Part shown: positions 25,403 through 42,929 of the stretch, piece by piece
Layout: every line of letters begins with the position of its first letter
How positions within the stretch are numbered: the stretch's first letter is position 1
Assembly: GCA_027451965.1 (NCBI GenBank)
Contig: DAIDHJ010000001.1
Location: 424,963-488,962, forward strand
Direction: 5' to 3'
Length of the DNA: 64,000 bases
Origin: Candidatus Adlerbacteria bacterium
GTDB taxonomy: Bacteria > Patescibacteriota > Minisyncoccia > Phycocordibacterales > SBAW01
The notes under the pieces: generated by a model
What the model saw: the letters and a program-made list of their open reading frames with translations, nothing else
Databases searched by the model: none
What the model was told of the DNA's origin: nothing
Made by a program: the position numbers and the translations under genes

Positions 25403-25888
25403 ATGCCCATCGTACAGACCGGCAATCCCGTATTGCGCCAAAAAGCAAAAGCAGTGCCCAAAAAAGAAATTGGTGCCCTGCGCAGCACACTGCGTCGCAT
25501 GCATGCCACGCTTGCCAAAGAAGAGCACGGGGTAGCGCTTGCCGCACCGCAGATCGGCGTATCGAAGCGCCTGTTTATCATTTCAGAGAAAGTATTCGCC
25601 GATGAAGACGCTCCGAAACAGAAACATCTGGTGTTCATCAATCCGGAATTAGTGCGTCTTTCACGAGCAAAAAAAGAGATGTCGGAAGGCTGCCTGTCGG
25701 TGCGCGGCACGTACGGCATCGTAGAGCGACATGAAAAAGCAACTGTGCACGCGCTGGACGAACACGGACTGCCGTTCACTTACCACGGTTCAGGACTCAT
25801 CGCACAGATTTTTCAGCATGAAATAGACCACCTTAACGGCATTCTTTACACTGATAAGGCAGAACAGTTTACCTACGAATCAGAATAA
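25403..25888 (+). CDS. def: peptide deformylase
   Basis: 161 aa with Def motifs GVALAAPQIG, EGCLSV and HEIDHLNG. Confidence 0.92.
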   Translation: MPIVQTGNPVLRQKAKAVPKKEIGALRSTLRRMHATLAKEEHGVALAAPQIGVSKRLFIISEKVFADEDAPKQKHLVFINPELVRLSRAKKEMSEGCLSVRGTYGIVERHEKATVHALDEHGLPFTYHGSGLIAQIFQHEIDHLNGILYTDKAEQFTYESE

Positions 25889-25890: not shown

Positions 25891-26766
25891 ATGCAGTCTC
25901 CTTTATTCGCCTTCTTCGGCACTTCTCGGTTTGCAGTCCAGGTACTTACCGCGCTTGAGACGCACGGCTTGTTTCCGGCACTCGTTGTGTGCGCTCCGGA
26001 CAAGCCAGCAGGACGGGGTCAGCAGCTCACCCCTGCACCCACAAAAGTGTGGGCGCAAGAGCGTGATATTGATGTCATGACGCCGGAGAAACTGGATGCT
26101 GCGTTTATAGAAAGCATCAGCAATTCAGAGTGGCAGGTATTCTGTACTGCCGCATACGGCAAGCTACTGCCAGAGCAACTCCTTTCCCTTCCCGCGCACG
26201 GAGCGCTTAATGTGCATCCCTCACTGCTTCCCAAATTCCGCGGCCCTTCCCCGGTGCTTTCCGCTATTCTTGCGGACGAACGCGAGACAGGCGTTTCCAT
26301 TATTGAGATGGATGCACAAATGGATCACGGTCCCATAGTCGCCCAAGGACGAGTGGAATTGGAATCAGATGCGTGGCCGCCGCGTGGTAGTCTCTTTGAA
26401 GATCTGCTGGCTACCGAAGGCGGCAATTTGCTTGCCGAAGTACTGCCCTTGTGGGTACGTGGCGAAATCACCCCAGTGGCACAAGATGATGCGCAGGCGA
26501 CGTACACAAAGAAATTTACTGATGCCGATGCGCGGATTTCGCTCCATGATGATCCACAAGCCATGCTGCTGCGAATTCGGGCATTTGATCGCAATCCGCG
26601 CGCCTATTGCATCGCACAGACCAAAGAAGGAAAACAGATCCGCGTCATTATCACCGATGCAGAGCTCGTAGATTCTCGCCTAGTTATCAAACAAGTGATT
26701 CCCGAAGGAAAGCGGGAGATGCCGTACGAGACGTTCTTAGCTTCCGGCGCTACGGTCGTCTCCTGA
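25891..26766 (+). CDS. fmt: methionyl-tRNA formyltransferase
   Basis: 291 aa. Formyltransferase motif NVHPSLLPKFRGPSP plus a C-terminal Fmt domain. Starts 3 nt after def. Confidence 0.92.
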   Translation: MQSPLFAFFGTSRFAVQVLTALETHGLFPALVVCAPDKPAGRGQQLTPAPTKVWAQERDIDVMTPEKLDAAFIESISNSEWQVFCTAAYGKLLPEQLLSLPAHGALNVHPSLLPKFRGPSPVLSAILADERETGVSIIEMDAQMDHGPIVAQGRVELESDAWPPRGSLFEDLLATEGGNLLAEVLPLWVRGEITPVAQDDAQATYTKKFTDADARISLHDDPQAMLLRIRAFDRNPRAYCIAQTKEGKQIRVIITDAELVDSRLVIKQVIPEGKREMPYETFLASGATVVS

Positions 26767-27112
26767 ATCCGCGCAAAAAGTCTTTGATGCGCGCCGCATG
26801 CTCTCGCATGCTCCGCTGTCCTTTCTTCTTGAGCTTTGCGATTTCACGATTGAACTCTTCTACTGCCAGATCTATGGCTTCGTGGAGAGCACTGCCGTCC
26901 GCACGTGCATATATCGTCTTCTTGTTGCTCAGTAATTTGAATGCTGCCTCATACCGCTCAGGAACGGTACCGGCGTCATAGGTCAGTGTGATATCAAAGG
27001 TATAGCTTGCATCTCCTTGGAGCAGCTTCTGCGCATGTCCCAACTTCTTATCAAGATATTCGCGGATTTCCTGAGACAATTCAATACCGGAACCTTGTAA
27101 GTTGTAATTCAT
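26750..27112 (-). CDS. hpf: ribosome hibernation promoting factor (HPF/RaiA family)
   Basis: 120 aa. MNYNLQGSGIELSQEIREYLDKKLGHAQKLL...YTFDITLTY is typical of the sigma54 modulation / ribosomal subunit interface protein family. Confidence 0.8.
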   Translation of the reverse strand: MNYNLQGSGIELSQEIREYLDKKLGHAQKLLQGDASYTFDITLTYDAGTVPERYEAAFKLLSNKKTIYARADGSALHEAIDLAVEEFNREIAKLKKKGQRSMREHAARIKDFLRGFRRRP

Positions 27113-27190
27113 ATTTTTTCGCTATGTATTTTACCATACCGACTTTTCTCTAGCCTATTTTTTGAGTATACTCAGATACGTTCGCTATAT

Positions 27191-27262
27191 TCCGGTGTAG
27201 CTCAATGGTAGAGCAGCTCCCTGTTAAGGAGTTGGTTGTAGGTTCGAGTCCTACCGCCGGAG
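27191..27262 (+). tRNA. tRNA-Asn (anticodon GUU)
   Basis: TCCGGTGTAGCTCAATGGTAGAGCAGCTCCCTGTTAAGGAGTTGGTTGTAGGTTCGAGTCCTACCGCCGGAG forms a cloverleaf with a 7-bp acceptor stem, anticodon loop CTGTTAA and TTCGAGT T-loop. Confidence 0.88.
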
Positions 27263-27560
27263 CAAAGTAGTCGAGTTAAGGTCAGAATCTCCCTTTTGTC
27301 CTTGATTCATCGAGGTATTTTCTGGTTCGTAGGCTTGATTCAGTTTTGGCATCCAAAATGCAAGATATTCGCCCGCCGATGTGTAATTCGGCTTGATGGT
27401 GCGCCTGTTTTGAGTCAGGTTCGTAAACGTACAGATACCATCTATTTCGGAATGGTATTACGAACCAAATTGGGTTGAAATACCATTGGTACACCATGGA
27501 AAGTCGGCACTTGGAGATGCTGTTAAAGTGCCTCAAACTAGGGTTTAATGAAGGCGTAAT

Positions 27561-27743
27561 ATGGGTAGCAAAATCATCAAAGAGCATTTGGAGGCACTGG
27601 ATGCCGAGAAGAAATACGATAAGGAGTTTATTCGTATCCTCCAAGGAGCAAACGAGCAAAACCTGGATGGAGAGAGTGTGGCAGAGGAGGTAATTAAAGC
27701 CATCAACGCCAGATATGTTAAAAGTCAAAAAGATAACTCTTAG
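27561..27743 (+). CDS. small hypothetical protein (60 aa), first ORF of the RloC-like operon
   Basis: ATG preceded by GAAGG 6 nt upstream. Its 3' end overlaps the start of the 818-aa gene by 29 nt, and that gene has no SD of its own, which suggests translational coupling. The protein is predicted helical and acidic. Confidence 0.3.
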   Translation: MGSKIIKEHLEALDAEKKYDKEFIRILQGANEQNLDGESVAEEVIKAINARYVKSQKDNS

Positions 27744-30171
27744 CGGCTTTCGGGGGATGCTTAAGCCCCAGGAATTGACGCTCACACGCAAAGGTGAAAA
27801 CTCTCCTTCTTCCTTGGTTCTCTACGGACTAAACAGTTCGGGCAAAACATCTTTTGTCGATGGCATCGAATGGTTTCTATCCCCTAACAATGAGATTGAG
27901 TGGCTCAAGCGTGAAGATGCAAGAGAGCGTGCTTATCCGCACCAAGAAGCACAGGACGGCGATAGTTTCGTCGAGATTGATTTTGCCGATGACAAAAAAG
28001 AAATCGGTGTACTACGTAAATCTTTTAATCAAAAGAAAGTAACCCAGCCAGGTTTATCCTCCGAAACCGATTTTGAAAAGGTTTATCAATCTTTTGTCAT
28101 TCGACCTTACCTTCGGTATCTAGAAGTGATTGATTTCGTTTATAACCGCACAGGCCTAGAAAAATATCAAAAACTAGCGGGTTGGATGGGGTTTGAAAAC
28201 GAGCTTTCGTTTCAAGAAAAGATAGCGCTGGATATTCTGCCTGAACTTAAAAGAAAGGAGAAAAACCTCACGGATAACGTAGCACTATTTGAGCGTCAAC
28301 TTGTACAGCTTATGGGTGCTGGGAAATTTGCTGATGAAGCAAGCATACTCGAATTTTGCAATGCAATTTTCACAAAACATAAGGTGAATCTCTCTTCAAG
28401 CATCAAAGATATCCCAAGCAGACTCGAAGAATTAAATAAATTAAAAAGCGCAGCAGGAGTAGCTGTAAAGGTGAGCAAGCTTACCGAGGTGGAGGTCTCA
28501 CTCACTCAAGTAAGTGTGGACGACGTTTTAATCAACGCAGTAGATAAATTGAACGAGACCCTAACTCGGTTCCTTAAAGATAAAGCACTGGTTCAGAAGA
28601 TAGATGTGATTGATGTTTATACACAAGCTTTGGATATCCTGAATCGGAACACGGATGCAAAAACAAGTTGCCCTGTATGCGGTACCAGCTGGGATAGAGG
28701 CAAATTGCAGGAGCACATTAAAGAAGAACTAACCTTGCTTGAAAAGATAAAACAAGAGAAGGAAGAGATTGCTAGAACTATTACTTCAACGAAGTCTCTT
28801 GTGAGAAGAGAGCAAGAAATGGTGAAGCAAATTATTTGGAAGTACGAAGAGGGGCAGAAAATCCTCCCAAATATTTCATACGAAAAACTCCAAGAATATC
28901 AAACAGCACTAGCTGCTCTAGATGGCGAGTTTGGCGGGAACATTTTTGAGAAAGGCAGAATTTCATCTTCACTAAGTCTAGATGATATCCCTAAAATAAA
29001 TACGGAAAAAGATGCTGCATTGGCTGCTATTGGCGTCGAAAAAGCAAAGCTCCAGCTGTCAAAAGATGCTCTTAGTTTGAGTTCTGACACAGAGAAAATC
29101 GCTCAAATAAAAGATAAATGGAAAGAAATCTTGGAGGCAAAAAGTGAACTTGCTTTCTTTACTGCTGAATACAGCAAATTCGCGGGGCTAGGAAACGCAT
29201 TGGTAAAGTTAATACAAGAAAATATCAAGAGCAGGTTTGGCGAGATGTCAGCCCAAATCGGAAAGTATTTTGGGATTCTTCGTAGCGACAAGGATATTAA
29301 AGACATCGAAATATTACTTAACGAAGCAAAAGGGAAAGCGGCGGGTCGCTCCGCTGAGATTCAATTAAATTACTACGACATTACCGTCAAACCCGCGTAT
29401 AAAGTATTAAGCGAGTCCCTTCTTAATAGCTTGGGTCTCGCTGTTTACTTTGCATGCGTAAGACAATTTAACGAAGACTGCAAGTTTGTAGTTCTCGATG
29501 ACATCATGAATAGCCTCGATATTGATAACAGAGATACCGTATTGGATTTAGTCGAGCAAGAGTTTTCTGACTATCAATTTATCTTGCTGACTCACGACTT
29601 TTATTGGTTTCAGAAGATTATGCGTAGGTTCCCAAACTGGATAAGCAAGAAGATAAAAGGCTGGGATTACAAGACTGGCTCTAAGATTGATTTTGCCCAA
29701 ACAAGTAAAGAAGAAATTGAAGAGCTATTGTCTGATGCCACCACGGTTGAAGATGCTGGCTTTAAACTGGGACGCCACATTGAAGGCATCCTGAATGAAT
29801 TGTGTGAAAACCTCTGGGCAGAAATAAGATACCGATATACAAAAAACGACCCTCCCGCAATGGAAGAGCTTTTTGATGCTCTCTATAAAAGGCTGAAGAG
29901 CAAAGTGAATCAAAATCCGATTGTGGAGAAGGTTGAGAATGCTAAGAAGTATGAGCCTGTTTTACGCAATTTTACCGCACACGCTCGAAGCAATAGCGCT
30001 TCTACCGTTTCTCCAACCGAGGTAAAACGAGCAATGGAAGAATGGTTCATTCTTGAGGAGGATTTGTGGTGCCCTGATTGCAACCGCTACGTTGAGTACC
30101 ATAGGTCTAAAGATGCAATTGAATGCAAATGCGGCAAAAAGAAGCTCGAAAAGGTATCGACCAAAACCTAG
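27715..30171 (+). CDS. RloC/PrrC-like ABC-ATPase with zinc-hook coiled coil and C-terminal HEPN-like nuclease domain
   Basis: 818 aa. The N-terminus (KKITLSGFRG ... LYGLNSSGKTSFVDGIEWFL) is a RecF/SMC/AAA_13-type head with Walker A. The central coiled coil carries CPVCG, a Rad50/SbcC-like zinc hook. The C-terminal head has a signature-like LLNSLGLAVYF, Walker B/D-loop FVVLDDIMNSLD and H-loop ILLTHD. It is followed by a roughly 190-aa tail with VLRNFTAHA (an R-N-x3-H HEPN motif) and a terminal zinc ribbon CPDC...CKCG. The reading frame is unambiguous; the functional assignment is by motif only. Confidence 0.75.
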   Translation: MLKVKKITLSGFRGMLKPQELTLTRKGENSPSSLVLYGLNSSGKTSFVDGIEWFLSPNNEIEWLKREDARERAYPHQEAQDGDSFVEIDFADDKKEIGVLRKSFNQKKVTQPGLSSETDFEKVYQSFVIRPYLRYLEVIDFVYNRTGLEKYQKLAGWMGFENELSFQEKIALDILPELKRKEKNLTDNVALFERQLVQLMGAGKFADEASILEFCNAIFTKHKVNLSSSIKDIPSRLEELNKLKSAAGVAVKVSKLTEVEVSLTQVSVDDVLINAVDKLNETLTRFLKDKALVQKIDVIDVYTQALDILNRNTDAKTSCPVCGTSWDRGKLQEHIKEELTLLEKIKQEKEEIARTITSTKSLVRREQEMVKQIIWKYEEGQKILPNISYEKLQEYQTALAALDGEFGGNIFEKGRISSSLSLDDIPKINTEKDAALAAIGVEKAKLQLSKDALSLSSDTEKIAQIKDKWKEILEAKSELAFFTAEYSKFAGLGNALVKLIQENIKSRFGEMSAQIGKYFGILRSDKDIKDIEILLNEAKGKAAGRSAEIQLNYYDITVKPAYKVLSESLLNSLGLAVYFACVRQFNEDCKFVVLDDIMNSLDIDNRDTVLDLVEQEFSDYQFILLTHDFYWFQKIMRRFPNWISKKIKGWDYKTGSKIDFAQTSKEEIEELLSDATTVEDAGFKLGRHIEGILNELCENLWAEIRYRYTKNDPPAMEELFDALYKRLKSKVNQNPIVEKVENAKKYEPVLRNFTAHARSNSASTVSPTEVKRAMEEWFILEEDLWCPDCNRYVEYHRSKDAIECKCGKKKLEKVSTKT

Positions 30172-30180
30172 AGACAAAAC

Positions 30181-30348
30181 ATGCTCACGATTGACGAATG
30201 CAGAGCACTTATTCCTGATGGCGAGGAATTGTCTAACGAAGAAATTGCGCAAATAAGAAAAGACCATTACGAGATGATTCAATTGGCTTTTGATGTATGG
30301 GTCTTGCAGAGAAAAAATAAAAAACATGAACCCCGAATTGAGAAATAA
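30181..30348 (+). CDS. possible small ORF (55 aa) between the RloC-like gene and the next ORF
   Basis: ATG 10 nt after the TAG stop of the 818-aa gene. Translates to MLTIDECRALIPDGEELSNEEIAQIRKDHYEMIQLAFDVWVLQRKNKKHEPRIEK. It was absent from the ORF track because it is under 60 aa. It overlaps the next ORF start by 23 nt. SD is weak (GAGA). Confidence 0.2.
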   Translation: MLTIDECRALIPDGEELSNEEIAQIRKDHYEMIQLAFDVWVLQRKNKKHEPRIEK

Positions 30349-30784
30349 ATTATCTTGGTGGCATCTTAAGGCTAAAAAAGAGAAGGACTTATGGGTTCGC
30401 TTCGTCCTTTACTATTTGATATTTGACGCCTTTATAAGCGACGGCTCTGGAAGCGGAAATGACCAGGAGAAACTTCGCTGGTTCGTTAATAGCGAGAATT
30501 CCTTAAAAGCGAGCATAGATGGAGGATGGCAGACAAGATTACTTCCGTTGGCAAAAATTCTAAAAGGAATGTCGCCAGTTCAAGATATGCGTCCTGGGTC
30601 AACCAGAGACGTTTCTGTAATTGACGAAAACAATCTTGAAGAAGTCTTTGCTGTTATATATCAAATTAGATGCAATCTTTTCCACGGCTCAAAAGACGTC
30701 ATGAATGGCAGAGATTCCAACCTCGTTGAACATGCAGGGAATTTCCTGCGCTATATGATTGATTGGTGGTTTGTCAGTACCTGA
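30326..30784 (+). CDS. hypothetical protein with HEPN-like R-x4-H-G motif
   Basis: The start is set at the internal Met (MNPELRNKLSWWH); the ORF-track frame starts at 30290. Trp-rich and helical. Has QIRCNLFHGSKD (R-x4-H-G) in the C-terminal third. Its stop TGA (30782-30784) is followed after 1 nt by the ATG of the next ORF. Confidence 0.45.
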   Translation: MNPELRNKLSWWHLKAKKEKDLWVRFVLYYLIFDAFISDGSGSGNDQEKLRWFVNSENSLKASIDGGWQTRLLPLAKILKGMSPVQDMRPGSTRDVSVIDENNLEEVFAVIYQIRCNLFHGSKDVMNGRDSNLVEHAGNFLRYMIDWWFVST

Positions 30785-30785
30785 T

Positions 30786-31673
30786 ATGTCCAACAAATAT
30801 TTGATGCAAAAAAGAGTGAAGACCCCTATCTATACTTTTGATAAATCAGAGTACAGAGAGTTCACCTTTGAGCCTTACCGCGATAACCAATCGCTCGAAG
30901 GAGACCTCCTCGTATCCCGAACCCTTGAAGCTGAGAACGGGAACGAGGCTATGCGTAAATTCTTTACGGAATTAGAGCCCATCCTCAATGCCATATCTGT
31001 CCTGACACAGACAATCATTTTTCCCCTCCCAACTGCAAGTCATTTGCTCTATAAGCTGGAAAACAACCCAGACAATCTTTTTTACGCAAACATTGCAAAC
31101 GATAGCGAGACGGCTGGAATGGGCTTAGAAAGTGAAGTTTTTGAGGATGTAGAGAAGCTGCTGAATATTGCTAATCCTATTGCCTTTTCCTACCTGAGAG
31201 ACGCTATAGGGACACTTTCGAGTGTTCAGCAACTATCAATGCTCATAAGCGCGGCGGAAGCCTTCGCGGGGACTTCGAAGACAAAAGGCTTTTGTAAGAA
31301 GTGTGGAGAGCCTTACGAGTACTCTTCGACTGACAAGGACAAGCTGAGGCTCATCTTAGGCGATGCGCTGTACAAGAGACTCTATACCGACGGCTTACGG
31401 CACAAGCTTGCACATGGTGGGGATTTCAACGGAGAAGCAGTCGCGGCAACCGCTGGGGAAACATATTCCAGAATCAGTCTTGGGTACCTGAAAGAGACAT
31501 ACAGTCTGAGTTCACTTGAAGAAATACACGGAGCGCCGCGCTCGTTTGTTTACGAATACTCCCACCACGGAGCTAAAATGCTCAGTTCAGATGCTCCAAC
31601 TTTAAAGCTCGTGGAAGCAGAGTGGGATTCGCCTGTTAGCTTTGCTTTCGCCGCCCTACCAGCAGACTACTAA
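30786..31673 (+). CDS. hypothetical protein with CxxC and HEPN-like R-x4-H-G motif
   Basis: 295 aa starting from ATG at 30786, arranged TGAtATG with the upstream ORF. Contains CKKCGEPYEY and LRHKLAHGGDF (R-x4-H-GG). Confidence 0.5.
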   Translation: MSNKYLMQKRVKTPIYTFDKSEYREFTFEPYRDNQSLEGDLLVSRTLEAENGNEAMRKFFTELEPILNAISVLTQTIIFPLPTASHLLYKLENNPDNLFYANIANDSETAGMGLESEVFEDVEKLLNIANPIAFSYLRDAIGTLSSVQQLSMLISAAEAFAGTSKTKGFCKKCGEPYEYSSTDKDKLRLILGDALYKRLYTDGLRHKLAHGGDFNGEAVAATAGETYSRISLGYLKETYSLSSLEEIHGAPRSFVYEYSHHGAKMLSSDAPTLKLVEAEWDSPVSFAFAALPADY

Positions 31674-31895
31674 CGACAAATATTTGGGGCTGGCTATCAA
31701 ATTAGGTGAGGGCATCCTCCCGCAAAAACACGCGGGCAAAACCGAAACTGGCACTACCCAAAATCGCCTGAAGGTTCTCTACCTGATAACAGCCAGCAGT
31801 TGTCGAATGTGCTGGAGCGACACCGACGGCTGTGGGAATATAACCTCCCATCGAGCGGTTCGTATGCTATCCCTCCATTCGAGCAAGGAAATATA

Positions 31896-31921
31896 GACAA
31901 AAATATAAAAAGTATGGTATA
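31896..31921 (+). promoter_or_regulatory. sigma70-like promoter with extended -10 for the 150-aa gene
   Basis: TAGACA -35-like element, 18-nt spacer, then tgGTATAAT extended -10. It is followed by a strong SD (TTGGAGGAAAT) and the ATG at 31945. The -10 lies inside 31905-31921; spacer and -35 coordinates are approximate. Confidence 0.4.
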
Positions 31922-31944
31922 ATTTCCCCTAGATTGGAGGAAAT

Positions 31945-32397
31945 ATGAAGGTGGTTTACCATGGATCTCCCTTCCTCGGACTACGTACGGTAGAACCAAA
32001 ACTAAATCGAAGAATACGAAATGGGCAAGTGATATTTGAAGCCCATGCATTCCATGCTACTCCCCTGCGTTGGATTGCGCTTGCTTACACAGCAACTCAA
32101 TTTTCCAATAATGCATACACGATGGGCGTCGATTTATATGGTTCTTACACGAAAAGGCGAATCGCTATCTTTGGGAGTACTTCTCTTGAAGAAAGTTTGG
32201 TTCGCTTATATGGATCTGGTGGGTACCTCTATACATTTGATGCATCACATTTTATCCGCCTTCCTGGTTTAGGAGACTTGGAAGTTATCACACAAGACTC
32301 GGTGCATCCAATATGTAGTGAACTCATACTAGATCCCGTGAAGGAAATGGAACGAGAAGGAGTAGAGTTTCATTTTGTACGTAAGAAGAATACTTAA
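31945..32397 (+). CDS. hypothetical protein with N-terminal YHGS motif (possible H-Y-E ADP-ribosyltransferase-like fold)
   Basis: 150 aa with its own promoter and a GGAGG SD. The N-terminal MKVVYHGSPFLGLRT resembles the H-G-S/T NAD-binding motif of PARP/DarT/Tpt1-type ART-fold proteins. That resemblance is inference only. Confidence 0.5.
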   Translation: MKVVYHGSPFLGLRTVEPKLNRRIRNGQVIFEAHAFHATPLRWIALAYTATQFSNNAYTMGVDLYGSYTKRRIAIFGSTSLEESLVRLYGSGGYLYTFDASHFIRLPGLGDLEVITQDSVHPICSELILDPVKEMEREGVEFHFVRKKNT

Positions 32398-32512
32398 CAG
32401 GCCGATGATTCATCGGCCTGTTTTTAGATTATTATTGAAACAATATGACTTATGTATACCACGCCGTACCCTCTGAAATAATAGGATCAATACTCTACCC
32501 TCTTAATCAGTT

Positions 32513-32543
32513 ATAAGTTCGAACGTCCTCTAGTAGGCGGAGC
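32513..32543 (+). repeat. direct repeat copy 1 (ATAaGTTCGAACGTCCTCTAGTAGGCGGAGC)
   Basis: 31-nt element that reappears at 33209-33239 with one mismatch. The two copies flank the GNAT cassette. Confidence 0.65.
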
Positions 32544-32641
32544 ACTAAATTGACGAAATATAGTTTTTGTGTTAAAAAAACAGCAGACTCGGAATAATCC
32601 GATTTTTGATCTTCTCATCATATCGCACTATGGAGGTGCTA

Positions 32642-33184
32642 ATGAGCATTAGTATCGTTCTCGCCTCTCCAAAAGATGCGCGAGGTATTCAGGAGGTCTT
32701 CTACGATACGTGGCTTGCTACCTATCCCAACGAAGAACTTATGATCAGAGTTGGAGACATCAAAGACTTTCTCAAGAACCATTTATCTACCGAATCTCTT
32801 GAGAGACGACGTCAGCAGATCAGTGTGAATCCATCACCTCACGGAAGAATATTTCTGGTAGCAAAAGACGAAGAACGGGTTGTTGGAGTATGCAACGTAG
32901 TTACCTATCCAACACATAACCAGATCCACAGCCTCTACGTGCTTCCTGAATATCAACGCATGCGCATTGGGAGTGACCTATGCTATAAGGCATTTGGATA
33001 CTTCAATTCATTATTCCCCACTACTTTGTGGGTCGCCTCTTATAATTCAAAAGCCATTCGATTCTATGAATCGCTAGGGTTTCGAGATACTGGGGAGCGT
33101 AAGGAAGATGAGACGATTCGTTTCCGAAATGGGATTCGCATGCCTGAGATGGAAATGGTTCGTGAACCTAGGTCGGCACTGTAA
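32642..33184 (+). CDS. GNAT family N-acetyltransferase
   Basis: Start after a GGAGGTG SD. Contains the acetyl-CoA motif YQRMRIGSDL (Q/RxxGxG/A) and IRFYESLGF. The ORF-track frame starts earlier, at 32606. Confidence 0.8.
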   Translation: MSISIVLASPKDARGIQEVFYDTWLATYPNEELMIRVGDIKDFLKNHLSTESLERRRQQISVNPSPHGRIFLVAKDEERVVGVCNVVTYPTHNQIHSLYVLPEYQRMRIGSDLCYKAFGYFNSLFPTTLWVASYNSKAIRFYESLGFRDTGERKEDETIRFRNGIRMPEMEMVREPRSAL

Positions 33185-33200
33185 CCAGTGCCGACTTTTT
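33172..33200 (+). terminator. rho-independent terminator of the GNAT gene
   Basis: Perfect 10-bp stem GTCGGCACTG/CAGTGCCGAC with a TAAC loop that contains the GNAT stop codon, followed by TTTTT. Confidence 0.7.
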
Positions 33201-33208
33201 CATTTGTA

Positions 33209-33239
33209 ATAGGTTCGAACGTCCTCTAGTAGGCGGAGC
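33209..33239 (+). repeat. direct repeat copy 2 (ATAgGTTCGAACGTCCTCTAGTAGGCGGAGC)
   Basis: Second copy of the 31-nt element, immediately after the GNAT terminator and abutting the stop of the cytochrome b-like gene. Confidence 0.65.
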
Positions 33240-33243
33240 CTGA

Positions 33244-34617
33244 TTACTTACCCTTCCAAATTATTTTTGCGAATGGCAACCATTCAGGAATTCTATTAAT
33301 GTATGGAATATATGGAAACAAGATGAGCAACAATGCACAGAATCCTAATATTTCTGCTCCATCTCGATCACCGTTTTGATCATTAGCAAGAATAGTATGA
33401 TCCAAAAAACCAAGAGGTGCGAGCCACCACGCACCTGGTGGTATAAATCCTTTTTCTTCCCGCATCATTCCCCATTGATCGGTAGTAATATGCAGTTGCG
33501 TTGCCTCTGCATCCAGTACACCGGTATCAGCAAGGAACCGTAAGGAGTAGGTCGGCTGTATTGCAACATTTTCCGAGTCTAGGATGGGTGTATACGTACC
33601 TTGTTGTCCCATGAGTACTAATGCACTAATTACTGGAATAAGAGGGTTACTATTTTGTTGTACAACGAGAGAACCGTTATTTTGGAAATAATTTGATGCC
33701 TGTGTAATGTATTTCTGCTGCAGAGTAGTATTTGCCTCCTCAAAAAGAGCCAGATCATCTATACCATGTGTTGAGGCATAAGATGCATAAGGTATGGAAA
33801 CATAGATAGCACGTGTGTCATAAGTGTAGGGATCTATTGAGTCTAGGTAGGTAGCAGTATCGGAGGTATGGGTAAATTCACTCAAAAGCGTTTGTGCCAT
33901 AAGAGCTGGAGACTCCTTTGCAACCTGGGTAATAGTTACAGGAGCAATAAATGGTGAGGGAAATAATAATGCCAAAAATAAGATCACAGAGCCTAAGATA
34001 ATCCCTCTCAAAAATAATCTTCTATGATCCGCCGATACCATTGTATATGAGACATTTTTGCGATACGGTTTCGCAATACCTCGTATCTTCACCAAGGCAT
34101 AGTGAATACATATCACAGTAACTAGAGAAATGGGGATATATATTACATGCAAACCATATACCTGAGCATAGTTCAATGTACTGATGAATTTTCCTATGAA
34201 TGCCCCGTTATAAAAATCTGCCCCTTGTAATGCTCGGTACTGGGAAGAAAAATCACCGCGCAAACCGTACCCAAATTCTGCTTCCGTTAGTACTACTAGC
34301 AATGCAATGACTCCCACTATCCATGTCAGTTTTCTGGGCGTTCGAAAAGCGCTGGTAGAAAATACAACCAAAAAATGAAGAAGAATGATTAGCACAAAAG
34401 CCTGTGCAGACCATAGATGAATACTACGTACTACTACACCCCACGGGTTCGTGAGCCACCACGAAGGACCGAAGACAATCATGGTGAGACCAGATGCAAT
34501 CAATAGTGTTAAACAAGTCAGTGCCAAAAAACCGAGAGAATAAAAAATAGTATTTCCATAAGAAGGAACCTTGGTAATAAAGATTTTCTCTTTTGTTTTA
34601 TTCCACCACTGAAACAT
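33244..34617 (-). CDS. cytochrome b (QcrB/PetB N-terminal di-heme domain)-like membrane protein with long C-terminal extension
   Basis: 457 aa. Helix B VVVRSIHLWSAQAFVLIILLHFLVVF has two His 14 apart, followed by PRKLTWIVGV. Compare Bacillus QcrB IVRGMHHWGASLVIVMMFLHTLRVFF...PRELNWIVGV. Helix D GLHVIYIPISLVTVICIHYALVKIRGIAKP again pairs two His. The C-terminal roughly 250 aa are a non-cytochrome extension. Confidence 0.7.
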   Translation of the reverse strand: MFQWWNKTKEKIFITKVPSYGNTIFYSLGFLALTCLTLLIASGLTMIVFGPSWWLTNPWGVVVRSIHLWSAQAFVLIILLHFLVVFSTSAFRTPRKLTWIVGVIALLVVLTEAEFGYGLRGDFSSQYRALQGADFYNGAFIGKFISTLNYAQVYGLHVIYIPISLVTVICIHYALVKIRGIAKPYRKNVSYTMVSADHRRLFLRGIILGSVILFLALLFPSPFIAPVTITQVAKESPALMAQTLLSEFTHTSDTATYLDSIDPYTYDTRAIYVSIPYASYASTHGIDDLALFEEANTTLQQKYITQASNYFQNNGSLVVQQNSNPLIPVISALVLMGQQGTYTPILDSENVAIQPTYSLRFLADTGVLDAEATQLHITTDQWGMMREEKGFIPPGAWWLAPLGFLDHTILANDQNGDRDGAEILGFCALLLILFPYIPYINRIPEWLPFAKIIWKGK

Positions 34618-34689
34618 TACGATAAGTTGATTTTACACCAAAACAAATGAGGCGCTCGAACACCTCTCCAGCAGAGATAAATCAAATAC

Positions 34690-34718
34690 TTGACAAGTTA
34701 ATTAATATATTCTACAAT
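34690..34718 (+). promoter_or_regulatory. near-consensus sigma70 promoter
   Basis: TTGACA (34690-34695), 17-nt spacer, TACAAT (34713-34718). Followed by SD AAGGAGAG and an ATG at 34758. Confidence 0.55.
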
Positions 34719-34757
34719 ATATCCAGGAGATTTGGGTTATCTTTTAAGGAGAGCACT

Positions 34758-34853
34758 ATGACGTTAATCATCGATCGCAAAACCGGTTTCGTCACCTCTT
34801 CGAAAGAAGAGGCAGTGGCCGAAAAAGCTGCCGCCCATGGAGGTTCCAAATAG
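34758..34853 (+). CDS. tiny ORF (31 aa) driven by the consensus promoter
   Basis: Translates to MTLIIDRKTGFVTSSKEEAVAEKAAAHGGSK. SD GGAG lies 6 nt upstream. The ORF-track frame (34647..) starts upstream of the promoter, so the internal Met is the likely start. A weak hairpin plus T-run downstream (AAAACCC...GGGTTTTAT) may terminate it. Confidence 0.4.
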   Translation: MTLIIDRKTGFVTSSKEEAVAEKAAAHGGSK

Positions 34854-34986
34854 GATTTCCTCCCCAAAACCCTCAACAGAGAAAAAAGAATGTTGGGGTT
34901 TTATACTGTCTGTAAGAAAAATACGCGCAGCTGTAAGAAATTAGTTACTGATAAGTACCAGTAATGATGCTAATTAAAAATATACA

Positions 34987-35424
34987 TTACGAGAGTACCG
35001 ATTTTAATTCTGAAAGAAGAGCTTGTATTTCCTCATGAGAAAGTACTCGACGCTGTTCACCAAAATGATTTAGATCTCCAATTTGTACATAGGGAACAAT
35101 ATGGAAATGAGTATGTGCAATACTTTTATTTTCTTGCACTTTCCCCTCTCGAACCATAAGGGTAATATTCTCATAGCCTAACTTTCGCAACAAATTTAAT
35201 CCAACCCGTTGTAATTCCTCAATTTCGCTCTCCTCTTCTTTGGCTAAATCATCTATAGATAACACATGACGATGTGGGACTACCAGTAAATGATGTTTGT
35301 GATACGGAGCTAGCGCATACGTGAGCATAGCGTGTTTGCGTTCCACCACAGGACGATTCCCTATTTCATTACAAAAAGGACACTGTGTCATTTTTGAAAG
35401 AAAATCTGTGTATGTTTCATTCAT
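34987..35424 (-). CDS. HIT family hydrolase
   Basis: 145 aa with the histidine triad HTHFHIVP and an N-terminal CPFCN. Confidence 0.85.
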   Translation of the reverse strand: MNETYTDFLSKMTQCPFCNEIGNRPVVERKHAMLTYALAPYHKHHLLVVPHRHVLSIDDLAKEEESEIEELQRVGLNLLRKLGYENITLMVREGKVQENKSIAHTHFHIVPYVQIGDLNHFGEQRRVLSHEEIQALLSELKSVLS

Positions 35425-35512
35425 GGCAGTACTATTATACAGATAATTTCATCTTATAGATGAAAAAGCACTACATACGTAGTGCCTTTTCTAAACTAAA
35501 CAATGTAGGATA

Positions 35513-36166
35513 TTAATTATCTCCCCCTCCATCATGTGAAATAGATGTGGTTGTGGCCTGTCCTTCTCCACCTTGATCACCTGAGGTAGTACTAGAAGCT
35601 GTATCAGAATTTTGCACACCTTCTTGCATATCAGCCTGTTCACATTCGAGTTCCATTTCCTTATTCATTTCTCCTCGAGTTCTTGGTCCTACATAGCCAA
35701 ACCCCGTAGAAGATGGGTCTCCAGAAGACACAATCCCATTCGCTGCCTGCCAGCGTTGTACCGCTTGCTCAGTTTCAGAACCAAAGTAGCCGGTTACCAA
35801 TCCAGAGGGATATATGTTCTTATCTTTTGCAAGAAAAGCTTGGAGTTGCGCAACTGCAGATCCAGATCCCTGATCACTTTCACCAAACGAGAGATTGCTA
35901 GAAAGTGTGGCACAGGTGCTGCTAGCTGAAACAGAAATAGGTGCAGGTACTTGCACAGGAGTACTTGATGCTGTCGTTTGTAAATCCGCTTGCACCGTAG
36001 CTACCGTACTTGGATCTGCACCAAAGGATTGTAAGAGGTTCACTACTGCTTGAATTTGCGCATCGGTAAGAGTTGCCGCATGAACAAAAGTAGCACTACC
36101 AAGTAACGAAAGAGAACTTGCTACACCAACGAAAGTTAACAGAAAACGTTTATACCTATGTTGCAT
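35513..36166 (-). CDS. secreted protein with peptidoglycan-binding-like domain
   Basis: Signal peptide MQHRYKRFLLTFVGVASSLSLLGSATFVHA. Has a PG_binding_1-like segment (AQLQAFLAKDKNIYPSGLVTGYFGSETEQAVQRWQAANGI) and a low-complexity Gly/Asp/Gln tail. Confidence 0.5.
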   Translation of the reverse strand: MQHRYKRFLLTFVGVASSLSLLGSATFVHAATLTDAQIQAVVNLLQSFGADPSTVATVQADLQTTASSTPVQVPAPISVSASSTCATLSSNLSFGESDQGSGSAVAQLQAFLAKDKNIYPSGLVTGYFGSETEQAVQRWQAANGIVSSGDPSSTGFGYVGPRTRGEMNKEMELECEQADMQEGVQNSDTASSTTSGDQGGEGQATTTSISHDGGGDN

Positions 36167-36276
36167 AGTAAAAAATGAATAAATAATGTGACCTTATTAT
36201 TATAACGTATTGCTGAGCCCCTTCTTACCGCATACATGCTCAATTAGTACGCAATACTAGCATTGGAATAATGGGA

Positions 36277-36690
36277 TTACTGTTTTCGCTCCATAAAACT
36301 GATTGCCCACTCAATGCCATATTTATCAGTCACGATACCAAATAACCCACCCCAAAATTGCCTTTCCAGGGGCATAAATACATCGCCCTCAGGCGTTAGT
36401 GCAGCAAATAGAGCTTGCGCCTCTGTTTCAGAATCTCCGTCCACCATGATAGCAATATTATCCCCCAGAGTTGCGGTATCCTGCATCATGTCGGAACCAG
36501 AAAGAAGCGTTACTCCATTCTTTGTAAGCACTGCATGCATAATATATCCGTGTTTATCAGGCATTTGTGACGCCATAGGAGAATCGGCAACAGTCATCAT
36601 GGAGACTTCACCGCCTAAGCACGATTGATAAAATTCCATCGCCTCTTTGCACACACCATTGTTAAAACGCAAATGTGTATTGAGTTTCAT
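36277..36690 (-). CDS. VOC/glyoxalase-like (PhnB-type) protein
   Basis: 137 aa. The fold pattern LRFNNGVCKEAMEFYQSCLGG...GDVFMPLERQFWGGLFGIVTDKYGIEWAI matches the PhnB-like/3-demethylubiquinone-9 methyltransferase-domain VOC family. Confidence 0.7.
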   Translation of the reverse strand: MKLNTHLRFNNGVCKEAMEFYQSCLGGEVSMMTVADSPMASQMPDKHGYIMHAVLTKNGVTLLSGSDMMQDTATLGDNIAIMVDGDSETEAQALFAALTPEGDVFMPLERQFWGGLFGIVTDKYGIEWAISFMERKQ

Positions 36691-36758
36691 ATAGTTACTG
36701 GAACTGCATAATTACTAATTAGCGCAAGGACCTATTATTAAGTATATAGGAATACTTT

Positions 36759-39700
36759 CTAGAGTTTATTGCGTCCCGGGTGCGGAGCACGGAAAAATAG
36801 GATTGGTACTAATACCAAGGTGAGACAAATAGCAAATGCTAATCCAAACATCACTGTATATGCGAGTGGCCCCCAGGTAGCATTGGCAGCAGCGAGTGGA
36901 ATCATACCAATAACAGTAGTAATGGTCGTAAGCAAAATAGGACGCAGACGAGTAGCAGAAGAAGCAACGACTACATCAATAATCGAATCATTCGGATTCG
37001 CATTCACATGTTTAATCATCGAATCCATAAGAATAATTGCATGGTTAATAATGACACCACCCAAGGCAATCACACCAATCAAAGACGTAAGAGAGATAGG
37101 CTGTCCAGTAAGTGCAAGGCCATCTAATACACCAATCAATGAGAGTGGGACGATAGAGAGCAGATACAGAGTGTAGCGAATTGAATTGAAAGCTAAAATA
37201 AGAATAAGGAACATAAGTACTAATCCAGAAAGAAGTGCAACAAACATATCCTGGAAGGATTGATTGATACTCTGACTTTCTCCTCCGTAGGAAACAGATA
37301 CTCCTGCAGGGAGGTGTAGCATGCCAATCTCTTTCTGGAATTGCGATACTACGGCAGTGACCGTCGTTTTATCATCTGGGTAGGCAGATACTGTCTCTAT
37401 GCGATGTTTATCTTTATGACTAATAACGGCATTATTTGGTCCAAGTGAACTATTGAGAATTGAACCCAGTAATACAGATCCGGAGGTCGTTTGAATAGAT
37501 ATGTTATCAATACTATCGAGTGTCGTTTGAGCAGTTTGAGATGGATCAATAGCAGTCGGGTTGAGATTAAGTTTCACCACAACATCAATATCTTGGGTAA
37601 GTTCTGGGATAGTAGTTGCCTTCGTACCATTAATTGCAGCACGGAGCGTTTGTGCCACCAATTGCGTATTCACTCCAAGTGCTTCTGCTTTAGCTCGATT
37701 AATAGATAAATCAAATTCAGTACCATTATTCTGTGTGGAATTAGTAATGTTAGTCACATGCGGAATAGTAGAGAGAAGCTGTTGTCCTCGATTTGCTGCG
37801 GTAATAAGATCATTAAGATTTGTTCCTTCAAACTGTATTTGAATAGGAGCTCCTGACGAAGGACCACCATTTGCTTGAAGCACCTGAATAGTCGCGTCAG
37901 TAATTACTGAGAGGCGTTTTTGTAGATCATCGGCAATTTGAGTACTCGTCTTACTTCGATGAGTAGGAAGGTTCACCGTAATATTGGCAATATTACTCCC
38001 TGACGAACCCTGCCCGGTAAGCGAAGAACTTTCGCCAACAGTGGTTGCAAATGAAGCAATATCTGGATCACTGTAGAGTATTTCTTCTACTTCACGTGCA
38101 GCTAAATCAGTTTGATCAAGTGTAGTTCCTTGCGGTTTCTCTATATTGATAAAGAGAAAATCTTGATTATTTTGTGGAAAAAATACTGCCTGCACTAACC
38201 CAGTAAATGGGAGCGTGAAAGAAAGGATGAACAATACAATGAGCGTACGCAGAAAGATTTTCTGATAGCGTTCGCGCTCTAAAATCAGCCGCAACATGCG
38301 CTTATACCACTCTGTTACCCGTGTTGTATACGCTTCTTGTGCTTGTTCCAAACGATTCTCTGCCCGTTTCGTAAATAAAACTGCAATTAATGGCACTATA
38401 CCAAGTGCTACAAAAATAGAAGCGAGGAGTACAAAGATGAGTGTAAACGGAATACCGGCAATAAATTTACCGACAATGCCAGATATGAAAAACAGTGGAA
38501 GAAATACTGCGACCGTAGTCATTGTCCCTGCAATTAATGGCCATGCATAATCTGCAAGCGCCGCACGAGCAGCAAGTAAAGGAGTAGCGTAGATACGCAT
38601 ACGCGCATGTATCGCTTCTGTGACAACAATACCGGAATCTACCAAAATACCTACTGCAAGCACCAATGCAAATAAACTGATGAAATTGAGTGTGTTACCA
38701 GTAAGATAGAGTCCAATAAACGAAATAAGGAATGAAAGCGGGATTGCCAGTGCAGCAACCAATGATTCACGCCATCCAATAGTGAGTAGTAAGGCAAGAA
38801 TTACTAATAGCACCGTTTCAAATCCTGTTTTAGTAAGATCGCCCAACTGTTTTGTAACTTGTGCCCCTTGATCAGTGGTAGGAGAAATAAATACGGTTAA
38901 ATGCGCAAGATCAGTTTTTCCTAATTGAGTAAGTTTTGCTTTTACCGCACTAGAGACGTCCGTAATACTTGCACTTGATTGCTTAAAAATAGTGAGTGTT
39001 ATTGCCTGACTACTTGGATGTCCATTAAGAGACAGCCGAGAATATGTAGTAGCGGGAGCAAGACCATTGGAGACAGTAGCAATATTGCGTACATAAATGA
39101 TTGCACCATTTTGTGTTCCTACTGCAATATCTGCTATTTGACCTGGATCAGTAATGCCTCCCTCAAAATTGACATTATAATTTACCCCATCCATCGAAAT
39201 GGAGCCTGCGGGTAGGGCTGCATTTGCCGCACTAATTGCAGAGATCACATCGGTGAGTCGAAGTTTGTATTGAGCAAGTGCACTTTTATTTACAATGACA
39301 TCTACTTCCCTATTTGGCACACCAGCTACATCCACCTCAGATACACCAGGAATTGTTTTTAACTCATTTGATATCGTTGTACCAAGATCAGAAAAATCAG
39401 TTGCAGGAAGATCTCCTGCAATAGAGACCACAAGGATAGGTTGATTGCTAAAATCTATTTTTGTTACTTCTGGCGTAGTTGCATCCGAGGGCAGTTGTGA
39501 TGTTACTTTTGCGACCGCATCACGTAAATCCTGAATAGATTGGTCAACATTTGCATTACTGGTGAACTGTACAGTGATTTCAGAAAGGCCAGTACTTGAG
39601 TTTGAAGTGATAGTATCAATATTTGCAATACCGGCAATCTGGTCTTCTAATTTATTAGTAACCAATGTCTCCATATCCTGTGCTGATGCACCAGGAAGTG

Positions 39701-39851
39701 TTGTGGTAACAACACCCTCAGGAATAACAATAGAAGGGGTATTTTCTTTAGGGATTTTCCATAATGAAAAACCGCCAGCAATGATAAGCGCAACAATAAG
39801 CACATAGCTGAATTGTTTACGATCAAGAAAAAAGTTCCACAACCACAACAT
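36759..39851 (-). CDS. RND superfamily efflux transporter (AcrB/HAE-type permease)
   Basis: 1030 aa. Twelve predicted TM segments arranged as two repeats, each with a large periplasmic loop. Length and topology are typical of RND pumps. Confidence 0.85.
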   Translation of the reverse strand: MLWLWNFFLDRKQFSYVLIVALIIAGGFSLWKIPKENTPSIVIPEGVVTTTLPGASAQDMETLVTNKLEDQIAGIANIDTITSNSSTGLSEITVQFTSNANVDQSIQDLRDAVAKVTSQLPSDATTPEVTKIDFSNQPILVVSIAGDLPATDFSDLGTTISNELKTIPGVSEVDVAGVPNREVDVIVNKSALAQYKLRLTDVISAISAANAALPAGSISMDGVNYNVNFEGGITDPGQIADIAVGTQNGAIIYVRNIATVSNGLAPATTYSRLSLNGHPSSQAITLTIFKQSSASITDVSSAVKAKLTQLGKTDLAHLTVFISPTTDQGAQVTKQLGDLTKTGFETVLLVILALLLTIGWRESLVAALAIPLSFLISFIGLYLTGNTLNFISLFALVLAVGILVDSGIVVTEAIHARMRIYATPLLAARAALADYAWPLIAGTMTTVAVFLPLFFISGIVGKFIAGIPFTLIFVLLASIFVALGIVPLIAVLFTKRAENRLEQAQEAYTTRVTEWYKRMLRLILERERYQKIFLRTLIVLFILSFTLPFTGLVQAVFFPQNNQDFLFINIEKPQGTTLDQTDLAAREVEEILYSDPDIASFATTVGESSSLTGQGSSGSNIANITVNLPTHRSKTSTQIADDLQKRLSVITDATIQVLQANGGPSSGAPIQIQFEGTNLNDLITAANRGQQLLSTIPHVTNITNSTQNNGTEFDLSINRAKAEALGVNTQLVAQTLRAAINGTKATTIPELTQDIDVVVKLNLNPTAIDPSQTAQTTLDSIDNISIQTTSGSVLLGSILNSSLGPNNAVISHKDKHRIETVSAYPDDKTTVTAVVSQFQKEIGMLHLPAGVSVSYGGESQSINQSFQDMFVALLSGLVLMFLILILAFNSIRYTLYLLSIVPLSLIGVLDGLALTGQPISLTSLIGVIALGGVIINHAIILMDSMIKHVNANPNDSIIDVVVASSATRLRPILLTTITTVIGMIPLAAANATWGPLAYTVMFGLAFAICLTLVLVPILFFRAPHPGRNKL

Positions 39852-39853
39852 AC

Positions 39854-41479: not shown

Positions 41480-41566
41480 GGTCTAGTTACTGCAAAAACA
41501 ATTAGATTTTACTACGATTTCAATAAACACACTATTAAAATAGTAAATTTAATAAGATATAAAGTG

Positions 41567-41595
41567 AAAAGGGGTACCAGAATTTCTGGTACCCC
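41567..41595 (-). terminator. rho-independent terminator (minus strand) after the 34-aa ORF
   Basis: Perfect 11-bp stem GGGGTACCAGA/TCTGGTACCCC with a 3-nt loop. On the minus strand it is followed by TTTTCACTTT. Confidence 0.55.
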
Positions 41596-41613
41596 TCGGC
41601 AGATCGAGCTATG

Positions 41614-41718: not shown

Positions 41719-41766
41719 ATGACCTCCTTTTGCAAGCAGGAAACCATGTATTCGGTTTCTAAATGA

Positions 41767-41794
41767 ATAATACTATATATATTTATATTGTCAA
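41767..41794 (-). promoter_or_regulatory. sigma70-like promoter (minus strand) for the 34-aa ORF
   Basis: TTGACA (complement of 41789-41794), 16-nt spacer, TATTAT (complement of 41767-41772). Confidence 0.4.
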
Positions 41795-42907: not shown

Positions 42908-42929
42908 AAATCTTGCAACTCTTTCACTA

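Follow-up and report, generated by a model that had tools for sequence, protein, structure and literature searches.

The tRNA-Asn locus

The window analysed here is a stretch of 64,000 nucleotides from contig DAIDHJ010000001.1 (assembly GCA_027451965.1) of a Candidatus Adlerbacteria genome, and the element under study is an accessory island of about 6 kb that begins directly after a tRNA-Asn(GTT) gene. ARAGORN places this gene at 27191-27263 on the plus strand, and the Rfam tRNA model matches 27191-27262 with 72 bits. On its left side the Pfam matches confirm the core genes def, fmt and hpf, which an earlier note, made from the letters of this DNA, had named as flanking genes. Seven proteins are encoded in the island (60, 804, 55, 152, 289, 150 and 184 aa as annotated), and the backbone resumes with a gene for a cytochrome b-like membrane protein (Table 1).

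The segment 27264-33239 is very probably a strain-specific, tRNA-linked islet in a genome of the Paceibacteria or 'Adlerbacteria' type, one that arrived by site-specific recombination and carries defence- or conflict-type cargo. To our knowledge, little has been reported on mobile elements and immunity in the Patescibacteria (the bacteria of the candidate phyla radiation, CPR), whose genomes are tiny. The island itself is of an ordinary, well-known kind, and its cargo is moderately novel.

Table 1. Coordinates of the island, its genes and signals, and the adjoining backbone genes (window positions).
Feature	Position	Strand	Basis or remark
def	25403-25888		Pfam
fmt	25891-26766		Pfam
hpf	26750-27112	-	Pfam
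tRNA-Asn (GTT)	27191-27263	+	ARAGORN, Rfam; last base is the left island junction (attL side)
Accessory island, 5,976 bp	27264-33239	.	Absent from the 96-99.7% identical strain L019
Leader, 297 nt, non-coding, from tRNA to first island gene	27264-27560	.	Only a spurious minus-strand open reading frame
60-aa helical protein	27561-27743	+	Last 29 nt overlap the start of the large ATPase gene; exact sequence annotated in the source genome
818-aa Rad50/SMC-like ABC ATPase with C-terminal HEPN and CxxC...CxC zinc ribbon	27715-30171	+	Pfam, PADLOC, PDB profiles
Zinc-hook codons C319-P-V-C322, mid-insert	28669-28680	+	Alignment of 36 sequences
C-terminal 189 residues: beta hairpin, HEPN four-helix core (R707, R751-N-x3-H756), zinc ribbon	29602-30168	+	
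55-aa protein	30181-30348	+	Present in the source-genome annotation; accompanies the 289-aa gene elsewhere
152-aa protein, R-C-N-L-F-H-G (Rx4HG) motif	30326-30784	+	Translation; annotated start confirmed by exact look-up
289-aa protein, invariant CKxC and R-H-K-L-A-H-G-G-D motifs	30804-31673	+	Family alignment
Sigma-70-like promoter TAGACA-18-TATAAT, extended TG	31894-31923	+	11/12 consensus match; 22 nt upstream of the ART-fold gene
ADP-ribosyltransferase (ART)-fold protein, 150 aa, motif H6-G-S8 ... F103 ... E113	31945-32397	+	Related to DUF6886
Bidirectional intrinsic terminator after the ART-fold gene	32396-32422	.	12-bp stem, 7 GC pairs, T tract
Internal copy of degenerate tRNA-Asn 3'-end repeat	32503-32543	+	May end the first 5.28-kb element
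GNAT N-acetyltransferase, 184 aa	32630-33184	+	Pfam Acetyltransf_1; annotated start confirmed by exact look-up
Intrinsic terminator of the GNAT gene	33170-33197	+	
Distal copy of degenerate tRNA-Asn 3'-end repeat	33199-33239	+	Last base is the right junction (attR-like)
Cytochrome b-like membrane protein, first backbone gene right of the island, outside it	33244-34617	-	Pfam

An empty site in a close strain

Close strains were reached through protein clusters of at least 90% identity, combined with exact-protein look-ups of contigs in the ENA and Logan metagenomes; a scan of GTDB genomes with Fmt gave no relative, and the JGI metagenomes yielded at best one of 33% identity. The most informative contig is L019 (ERZ27237563; 3,528 nt), whose gene content is fmt', hpf, tRNA-Asn, the cytochrome b-like gene and HIT. 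Read in the direction of the window, positions 1-1185 of L019 correspond to window 26078-27263 at 96.4% identity, and positions 1180-3528 to window 33234-35581 at 99.7%. The two alignments overlap by 6 nt, CGGAGC, a hexamer that is common to both ends of the island. The junction in L019 reads ...CCGCCGGAGC|CTGATTACTTACCC; in the window, the left junction reads ...CCGCCGGAGC|AAAGTAGTCG and the right one ...GTAGGCGGAGC|CTGATTACTTACCC. L019 is thus the empty-site variant that the earlier note had suggested looking for in related genomes, and the island that it had placed at the 3' end of tRNA-Asn, from about 27.19 to 33.24 kb, is confirmed almost to the base, with refined limits of 27264 and 33239.

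Further contigs bear on the same site. Those named L016, L017 and L018 are 97-97.8% identical to the window; the first two end within hpf, and L018 terminates precisely at 27263, the final base of the tRNA. In L020 (SRR13300764), the same right flank is preceded by 567 nt of unrelated DNA that ends ...CCATCGGAGC (TCGGAGC). This insert has a GC content of 0.49 and codes for the C-terminal 159 aa of a protein without a Pfam match, the remainder of which lies beyond the contig end. Three allelic states therefore occur at one site: empty (L019), this island, and another insert (L020). Resolved to the base pair at a tRNA gene of a member of the Patescibacteria, this strain-variable islet offers a clean example of island turnover.

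The protein clusters give the same picture. All seven island proteins are singletons at 90% identity or above, and 10 of 11 backbone proteins (hpf, fmt, cytochrome b-like, HIT, AcrB, HlyD, pyk, DsbA, G6PD and SET) have close-strain members, a difference of 0/7 versus 10/11 with a one-sided Fisher exact probability of about 2.5e-4 by our own calculation. The cytochrome b-like gene, for instance, belongs to a cluster of four members and is 99.7% identical in L019 and L020. Since the island is strain-specific among genomes that are 96-99.7% identical, the insertion polymorphism is recent. The description of the island as "old, decayed" is therefore apt for its degenerate attachment (att) copies and its missing recombinase, but not for the polymorphism itself.

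In comparisons with L016-L020, strain identity is asymmetric around the tRNA: 96.4-97.8% in the left flank and 99.7-99.8% in the right flank. This asymmetry suggests a recent homologous exchange or sweep to the right of the integration site.

Island ends and the probable route of integration

The GNAT gene is flanked by direct repeats, as had been noticed earlier; they are 41 nt long (32503-32543 and 33199-33239) and 88% identical. They contain a 28-nt core, GGTTCGAACGTCCTCTAGTAGGCGGAGC, which occurs in the window only at 32516-32543 and 33212-33239 and which copies the tRNA-Asn 3' end, GGTTCGAGTCCTACCGCCGGAGC, in degenerate form and with gaps. In a global alignment against the 3' half of the tRNA, the repeat scores 19; shuffled sequences score -2.8 (standard deviation 6.0), and none of 2000 reached 19. 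Only CGGAGC is shared exactly between the repeat and the tRNA 3' end, and an exact or near-exact copy of that end (at most 3 mismatches) is found nowhere in the window other than in the tRNA itself. The tRNA-Asn 3' fragment expected at the distal junction appears as a degenerate, gapped copy that outscores all 2000 shuffles, but not as an exact or near-exact one. Other islands (L010, L012-L015, L027 and L034) were also searched for repeats of tRNA 3' ends, with nothing above chance.

The simplest reading of this layout is that a 5.28-kb element (27264-32543) is followed by a 696-bp GNAT cassette (32544-33239), the products of two successive integrations at the same tRNA site. Site-specific recombination at the CGGAGC end of the tRNA would have brought the island in, probably in two tandem accretions, with the GNAT cassette first and the 5.28-kb element second.

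No recombinase or integrase was found, either by Pfam among the island open reading frames (ORFs) or by tblastn across the window with five recombinases from L007, L010, L014 and L015; on this point the earlier note was right. In related Patescibacteria, large serine recombinase genes lie near tRNA 3' ends: at 1407-3133 in L014, 8895-12175 in L015 and 11370-12743 in L010. The recombinase frame runs antisense into the tRNA gene in L014 (tRNA-Ser) and L010 (tRNA-Asn), and in L015 it is located about 2 kb downstream of tRNA-Ser. The L010 gene codes for a 437-aa remnant that overlaps the tRNA-Asn 3' end and keeps only the Zn_ribbon_recom part. These genomes point to a likely candidate route of integration, by large serine recombinases abutting tRNA 3' ends. 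The catalyst in the present case was probably an enzyme of this type, which was later lost or acted in trans.

More generally, the island resembles other tRNA-linked islands in its exact tRNA 3'-end site, its presence or absence among strains, the alternative cargo in L020, the distal repeat resembling a tRNA 3' end, and its defence-type cargo. It departs from the typical ones in its size of only 6 kb (possibly 5.3 + 0.7 kb in tandem), the lack of an integrase and the degeneracy of its att copies. Known tRNA-linked islands mostly use tyrosine integrases, whereas the recombinases beside tRNA 3' ends in related Patescibacteria are large serine recombinases.

Extent, composition and origin of the island

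The abrupt change of GC content that had been reported after tRNA-Asn is real at the left edge. In 1-kb windows, GC is 0.51-0.54 over 22-27 kb and 0.39-0.44 over 27-31 kb; windows of 300 nt locate the step at about 26.85-27.15 kb. Composition cannot delimit the island here, however, because the right-flank backbone has the same GC. By segment, GC is 0.495 in 1-27190, 0.427 in 27264-33243, 0.423 in 33244-47786 and 0.438 in 47787-60370. At 33.2 kb the profile shows no break, and low values continue across the housekeeping genes pyk, zwf, truB, hisS, addA-like and rpoD. GC at third codon positions (GC3) is 0.49-0.59 in the upstream core genes, 0.33-0.50 in the genes of 27.5-33.2 kb, 0.27-0.34 (the lowest in the window) in those of 33.2-42.6 kb, and 0.35-0.40 in the downstream housekeeping genes. 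The island thus has a GC of 0.427, compared with about 0.52 in the left flank and 0.423 in the right, and a GC3 between those of both flanks. GC was rejected as a delimiter of the island, the right-flank backbone being equally AT-rich and lower in GC3.

Several observations weigh against the reading of the segment as an islet that arrived by site-specific recombination. Its composition fails to distinguish it from the right flank. It has no clean direct repeat and no recombinase, and its att-like copies resemble the tRNA 3' half loosely, with indels, so that the chemistry of integration can only be inferred. The event may also have run in the other direction, as a precise loss in L019 instead of an insertion here. 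In addition, the backbone Nramp protein is also a singleton cluster, which makes the absence of a cluster, taken alone, imperfect evidence.

The composition invites the idea of a single large and old island that takes in all the AT-rich DNA between 27.3 and about 47 kb (or 60 kb), with the 6-kb segment as its newest part. We consider this unlikely, although the wider relatives lend it some substance. Homologues of Fmt with 60-66% identity carry the labels Paceibacterota, Adlerbacteria or Patescibacteria. Three family-level relatives (L010, the closest, L011 and L012) keep the upstream order of M50 protease, frr, HhH-GPD, holB-like, mreB, murA, def, fmt, hpf and tRNA-Asn, and differ in gene content straight after the tRNA. 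The only window genes that recur near their tRNA-Asn are DsbA (47070-47786), Nramp and SET, at 2-9 kb there versus 20-23 kb here, and no gene of 33-47 kb is found in that neighbourhood. The large-island idea also draws on the low GC up to about 60 kb, with the lowest GC3 at 33.2-42.6 kb, and on AcrB, which is 71% identical to a Minisyncoccota gene adjoining an island (L015). On the other hand, the DNA of 33.24-35.58 kb is present at 99.7% identity in island-free strains, and each of the cytochrome b-like, HIT, AcrB, HlyD, pyk and DsbA proteins has copies in close strains. The stretch also holds housekeeping genes of the same composition (pyk, zwf, truB, hisS and rpoD), no bounding repeat or recombinase was found for it, and the relatives that were compared share about 60-70% protein identity, a distance at which loss of synteny is expected. 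On the same strain data, with identity of 99.7% from 33240 on in strains that lack the island, the loose continuation of the island to about 45.6 kb that had been proposed earlier is rejected at strain level.

Within the right flank, a backbone block at 33244-42585 contains genes of the cytochrome b-like, HIT, PG-binding, glyoxalase, AcrB, HlyD and FNR-like types. Near tRNA-Asn of the family-level relatives all of these are missing, and the block may have been acquired at an earlier time and since become fixed in the species.

It is also improbable that the segment is ancestral and that L019 lost it through a deletion running from the tRNA 3' end to the tRNA-like repeat. The presence of CGGAGC at both ends, together with that repeat, could mediate such a deletion, and the island is without a recombinase. 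However, L020 carries unrelated DNA at the identical junction, homologues of the cargo are found elsewhere within recombinase-bearing mobile islands at other tRNAs, and the family-level relatives have wholly different genes after tRNA-Asn. Moreover, precise excision is itself the behaviour of an island, and would change the direction of the event and not the nature of the segment.

A mis-joining of foreign DNA at the conserved tRNA gene during metagenome assembly is most improbable: the source is indeed a 548-kb contig of a metagenome-assembled genome, tRNA genes are classic points of chimeric joining and GC differs on either side of this one, but the backbone resumes beyond the 6 kb at 99.7% identity, which would require two precise mis-joins, the presence of DsbA, Nramp and SET within 10 kb of hpf/tRNA-Asn in three relatives supports the contiguity of the flanks, and the distal end bears the tRNA-like repeat.

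A two-gene module with an ATPase-HEPN protein

The main cargo of the islet is a conserved, uncharacterised two-gene relative of RloC, which makes it a testable candidate for defence. Its large product, of 818 aa, matches Pfam SMC_N over residues 4-634, a span that implies a split ATPase head, and AAA_21 and AAA_15 match as well. The best match in the defence library of PADLOC is LmuB (PDLC03859; E = 4.4e-24, residues 26-642), and a profile search against the PDB returned SMC and Rad50 heads, with weak matches to the Rad50 hook. In an alignment of 36 sequences, G38-x5-K44, C319/P320/C322, S566-E-S568, D595-D596, H627, R707, H756 and C786/C789 are invariant. The insert that carries the CPxC zinc hook is probably a coiled coil, and the hook is also kept in plasmid homologues of 20-23% identity.

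The C-terminal domain is, by its fold, of the HEPN nuclease type. The motif R751-N-F-x-x-H756 (Rx4-6H) stands at the start of the last helix of the HEPN core; its histidine is invariant and usually preceded by serine (RNFxSH motif conserved), and its arginine is present in at least 90% of sequences. R707, 49 residues upstream, is also invariant. About 90 full-length homologues were found, with 43-65% identity and a family span of approximately 796-841 aa, and in every one of them the HEPN fold with its conserved histidine is fused to the C-terminus.

As deposited, the large gene is annotated with 804 aa (P0001) and begins 14 codons after a conserved N-terminus, MLKVKKITLSGFRG (window 27715-27757). 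Family-wide conservation of this N-terminus (MLKxKKIxLSGFRG) makes 27715 the likely start codon. The resulting 818-aa frame overlaps the 60-aa gene by 29 nt, an arrangement that is kept in all homologues. In L001-L007, a small homologous ORF (39-48% identity) stands ahead of the large gene, and a homologous, overlapping one is present at 12 of the 12 assessable GTDB loci; on the Brucella and Sphingomonas plasmids, non-homologous small overlapping ORFs occupy the same position. The 60-aa protein, an apparently obligate partner of the ATPase, itself has no match in PADLOC or Pfam.

In other genomes, type I-like or type ISP restriction-modification (R-M) genes immediately precede the module (L001/L025, L007, L029 and L030), or, in L006, it is found beside an EcoRI-like methylase together with GmrSD, Fic/RhuM, NERD and reverse transcriptase genes. 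Serine recombinases and a Prim-Pol gene are found nearby at several loci. In L034 the module follows tRNA-Glu(ctc) at a distance of 69 nt, and in L027 it begins 1.2 kb beyond a group of three tRNA-Ser genes. In GTDB, the family is distributed among Patescibacteria, Saccharibacteria, Omnitrophota, Thermodesulfobacteriota and Cytophagia, and one close-family protein is labelled Hodarchaeales by its source. No homologue was found in IMG/VR or in GenBank phages.

Full-length homologues of 20-23% identity are also encoded on plasmids of Brucella anthropi (L021; NZ_CP008817.1), Sphingomonas aliaeris (L022; NZ_CP061037.1) and Halobacterium noricense (NZ_CP089469.1), where they are annotated merely as 'hypothetical' or 'AAA family ATPase'. 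The L021 and L022 proteins, both of which were aligned, keep the hook, the HEPN histidine and the zinc ribbon, and a small overlapping ORF precedes each gene.

A shared downstream gene was also considered and rejected: the downstream neighbours of the homologues are unrelated to one another and to the 55-, 152- and 289-aa genes. The "RloC-like operon" of the earlier note thereby reduces to the two-gene module plus independent neighbours. The ABC ATPase, CxxC hook and HEPN architecture behind that name stands, but the large protein has no AAA_13 match.

Comparison with RloC, PrrC and Lamassu

In RloC, a C-terminal nuclease is joined to an ABC ATPase and to a Rad50-like coiled coil bearing a CX2C hook (PMC2610378); the nuclease was identified afterwards as a HEPN domain (PMC3710099). 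It has accordingly been described as a Rad50-like, zinc-hook ABC ATPase joined to a HEPN anticodon nuclease (PMC2610378, PMC3458546, PMC3710099). Its size ranges from 658 to 897 aa, and its nuclease bears the triad R-X3-E-X36-52-H, often with a serine before the histidine (PMC2610378). The 818-aa protein falls inside this range of sizes. It likewise has the Walker A, signature, Walker B/D-loop and switch-histidine elements, a long insert with a CxxC hook, and a C-terminal HEPN-fold domain whose invariant histidine usually follows a serine. Its homologues, like RloC, often occur within type I-like R-M loci and near Fic/RhuM genes. More broadly, the contexts published for ABC-HEPN proteins resembling RloC agree with the R-M, GmrSD, Fic/RhuM and recombinase neighbourhoods found here (PMC3710099).

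The differences from RloC include an additional C-terminal zinc ribbon and the ~60-aa overlapping gene that always precedes the large one, a feature of which the available text of PMC2610378 and PMC3710099 makes no mention for RloC. The taxonomic range differs as well, the present family being found mainly in Patescibacteria and Omnitrophota.

With the anticodon nuclease PrrC, the protein shares the ATPase-HEPN fusion and, in several homologues, a position immediately downstream of R-M genes; PrrC, by contrast, has no coiled-coil/zinc-hook insert and is half the size. Lamassu is approached from another side. Its LmuB is the best PADLOC match, both ATPases are SMC/SbcC-derived and have a CxxC hook (PMC12663957), and the small gene immediately upstream of the ATPase gene takes the position of LmuC, although it is much smaller and has no LmuC match in PADLOC. 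Unlike in Lamassu, there is no LmuA match in PADLOC, the ATPase itself carries the HEPN effector as a C-terminal fusion, and the neighbours of the homologues vary.

Some features of the large protein count against a function like that of RloC. It has no match to Pfam AAA_13 (PF13166) at E <= 0.01, a family that we take to be that of PrrC and RloC; among the homologue matches, the only AAA_13-bearing protein is P0090, a marginal case (E = 9e-4, 24% coverage). The triad R-X3-E-X36-52-H is absent, with no glutamate at R+4; the conserved acidic residues of the family are E690 and E718, alongside R707, R751-N752 and H756. The arginine of the Rx4H motif gives way to another residue in the remotest members, P0089 and the Brucella plasmid homologue. 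Finally, PrrC is found in type Ic R-M loci, and no R-M system adjoins the 818-aa gene in the window. From its sequence, then, the protein appears RloC-like by architecture while failing the sequence test of the PrrC/RloC family.

If the protein works like PrrC and like RloC, a wobble-nucleotide-excising tRNase, its ATPase and zinc-hook portion would detect abnormal DNA, such as phage DNA ends, breaks, or the failure of a linked restriction system. ATP binding and hydrolysis would then release the HEPN RNase, which would cut tRNA or other RNA and stop translation in the infected cell. The outcome would be abortive or translation-arrest immunity, as has been proposed for RloC and PrrC, and the 60-aa partner is a candidate regulator or adaptor of the switch. 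With somewhat less than even confidence, we put forward that the presumably translationally coupled pair (a ~60-aa helical protein and a ~815-aa zinc-hook ATPase-HEPN-zinc ribbon protein) forms a distinct, unnamed anti-phage or anti-plasmid system, set apart from RloC/PrrC by its catalytic constellation and the missing AAA_13 match and from Lamassu by the missing LmuA, which moves between tRNA-linked islands, at least some of them driven by serine recombinases, and in which the RNase would be gated by the small partner as an essential regulator.

A different function can be imagined, in which the 818-aa protein is of the SMC/Rad50 type of DNA repair or chromosome maintenance, or is a Lamassu LmuB with a separate effector, rather than an RNase-based defence protein. 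This has a low probability in our view. Its best library matches are SMC_N and LmuB, the PDB matches are SMC and Rad50 heads, and a plasmid homologue bears the Gene Ontology term 'double-strand break repair'. Yet the HEPN fold and its conserved histidine are fused in all of the ~90 homologues, the family is patchy across phyla and strain-specific here, and its neighbourhoods are those of R-M systems and recombinases. Furthermore, no partner resembling Mre11/SbcD or LmuA is present, and the downstream neighbour varies.

Other genes of the island

Downstream of the module, the 55-aa gene appears to belong with the 289-aa gene: in L013 and L014, a 67% identical ORF lies directly upstream of an 81% identical homologue of 295 aa. 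The 289-aa family is rare, with only four other members known. They are located in islands at tRNA-Ser(gga), where genes for large serine recombinases, for GmrSD and for a STAND-like NTPase are also found, as is an insertion sequence (IS) element. For both the 152-aa and the 289-aa protein, nothing significant was found in Pfam (E <= 10), NCBIfam, PADLOC or the PDB. The 152-aa protein has a weak PADLOC match to DzbB (E = 1.7e-4) over its motif region. At the level of a guess from motifs, both may be HEPN proteins; an alignment of the 289-aa family with HEPN (hhalign) reached a probability of only 0.5%, which tells against this assignment, made from a short motif.

The 150-aa protein has an ART fold with the H ... 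Y/F ... E constellation, so that its earlier designation as ART-like was correct as far as the fold is concerned. The promoter that had been ascribed to its gene was also found as a candidate, by its agreement with the consensus, which is the closest of any site in the island. Compared with the H-Y-E-type ART superfamily (Tpt1/KptA, PARP catalytic domains, diphtheria-like toxins, Arr and AcrF11, as well as DUF6886), the protein differs in being a minimal, stand-alone domain, with no partner antitoxin or macrodomain gene visible beside its own. A search of BFVD with the ART model returned uncharacterised proteins only. The GNAT protein is a clear member of PF00583 (E = 5.5e-15; 56 bits, with the cutoff at 20.7).

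In the remainder of the window, a second tRNA gene, tRNA-Glu(ctc), was located by ARAGORN at 7578-7651 on the minus strand; a tRNA of this type is the one that the ATPase-HEPN module follows in L034. The SET-domain protein of the right-hand backbone (135 aa; 50050-50457, minus strand) matches Pfam SET with E = 3e-23, is 63% identical in the family-level relative L011 and also occurs in close strains. A bacterial SET methyltransferase in a reduced genome may merit separate attention.

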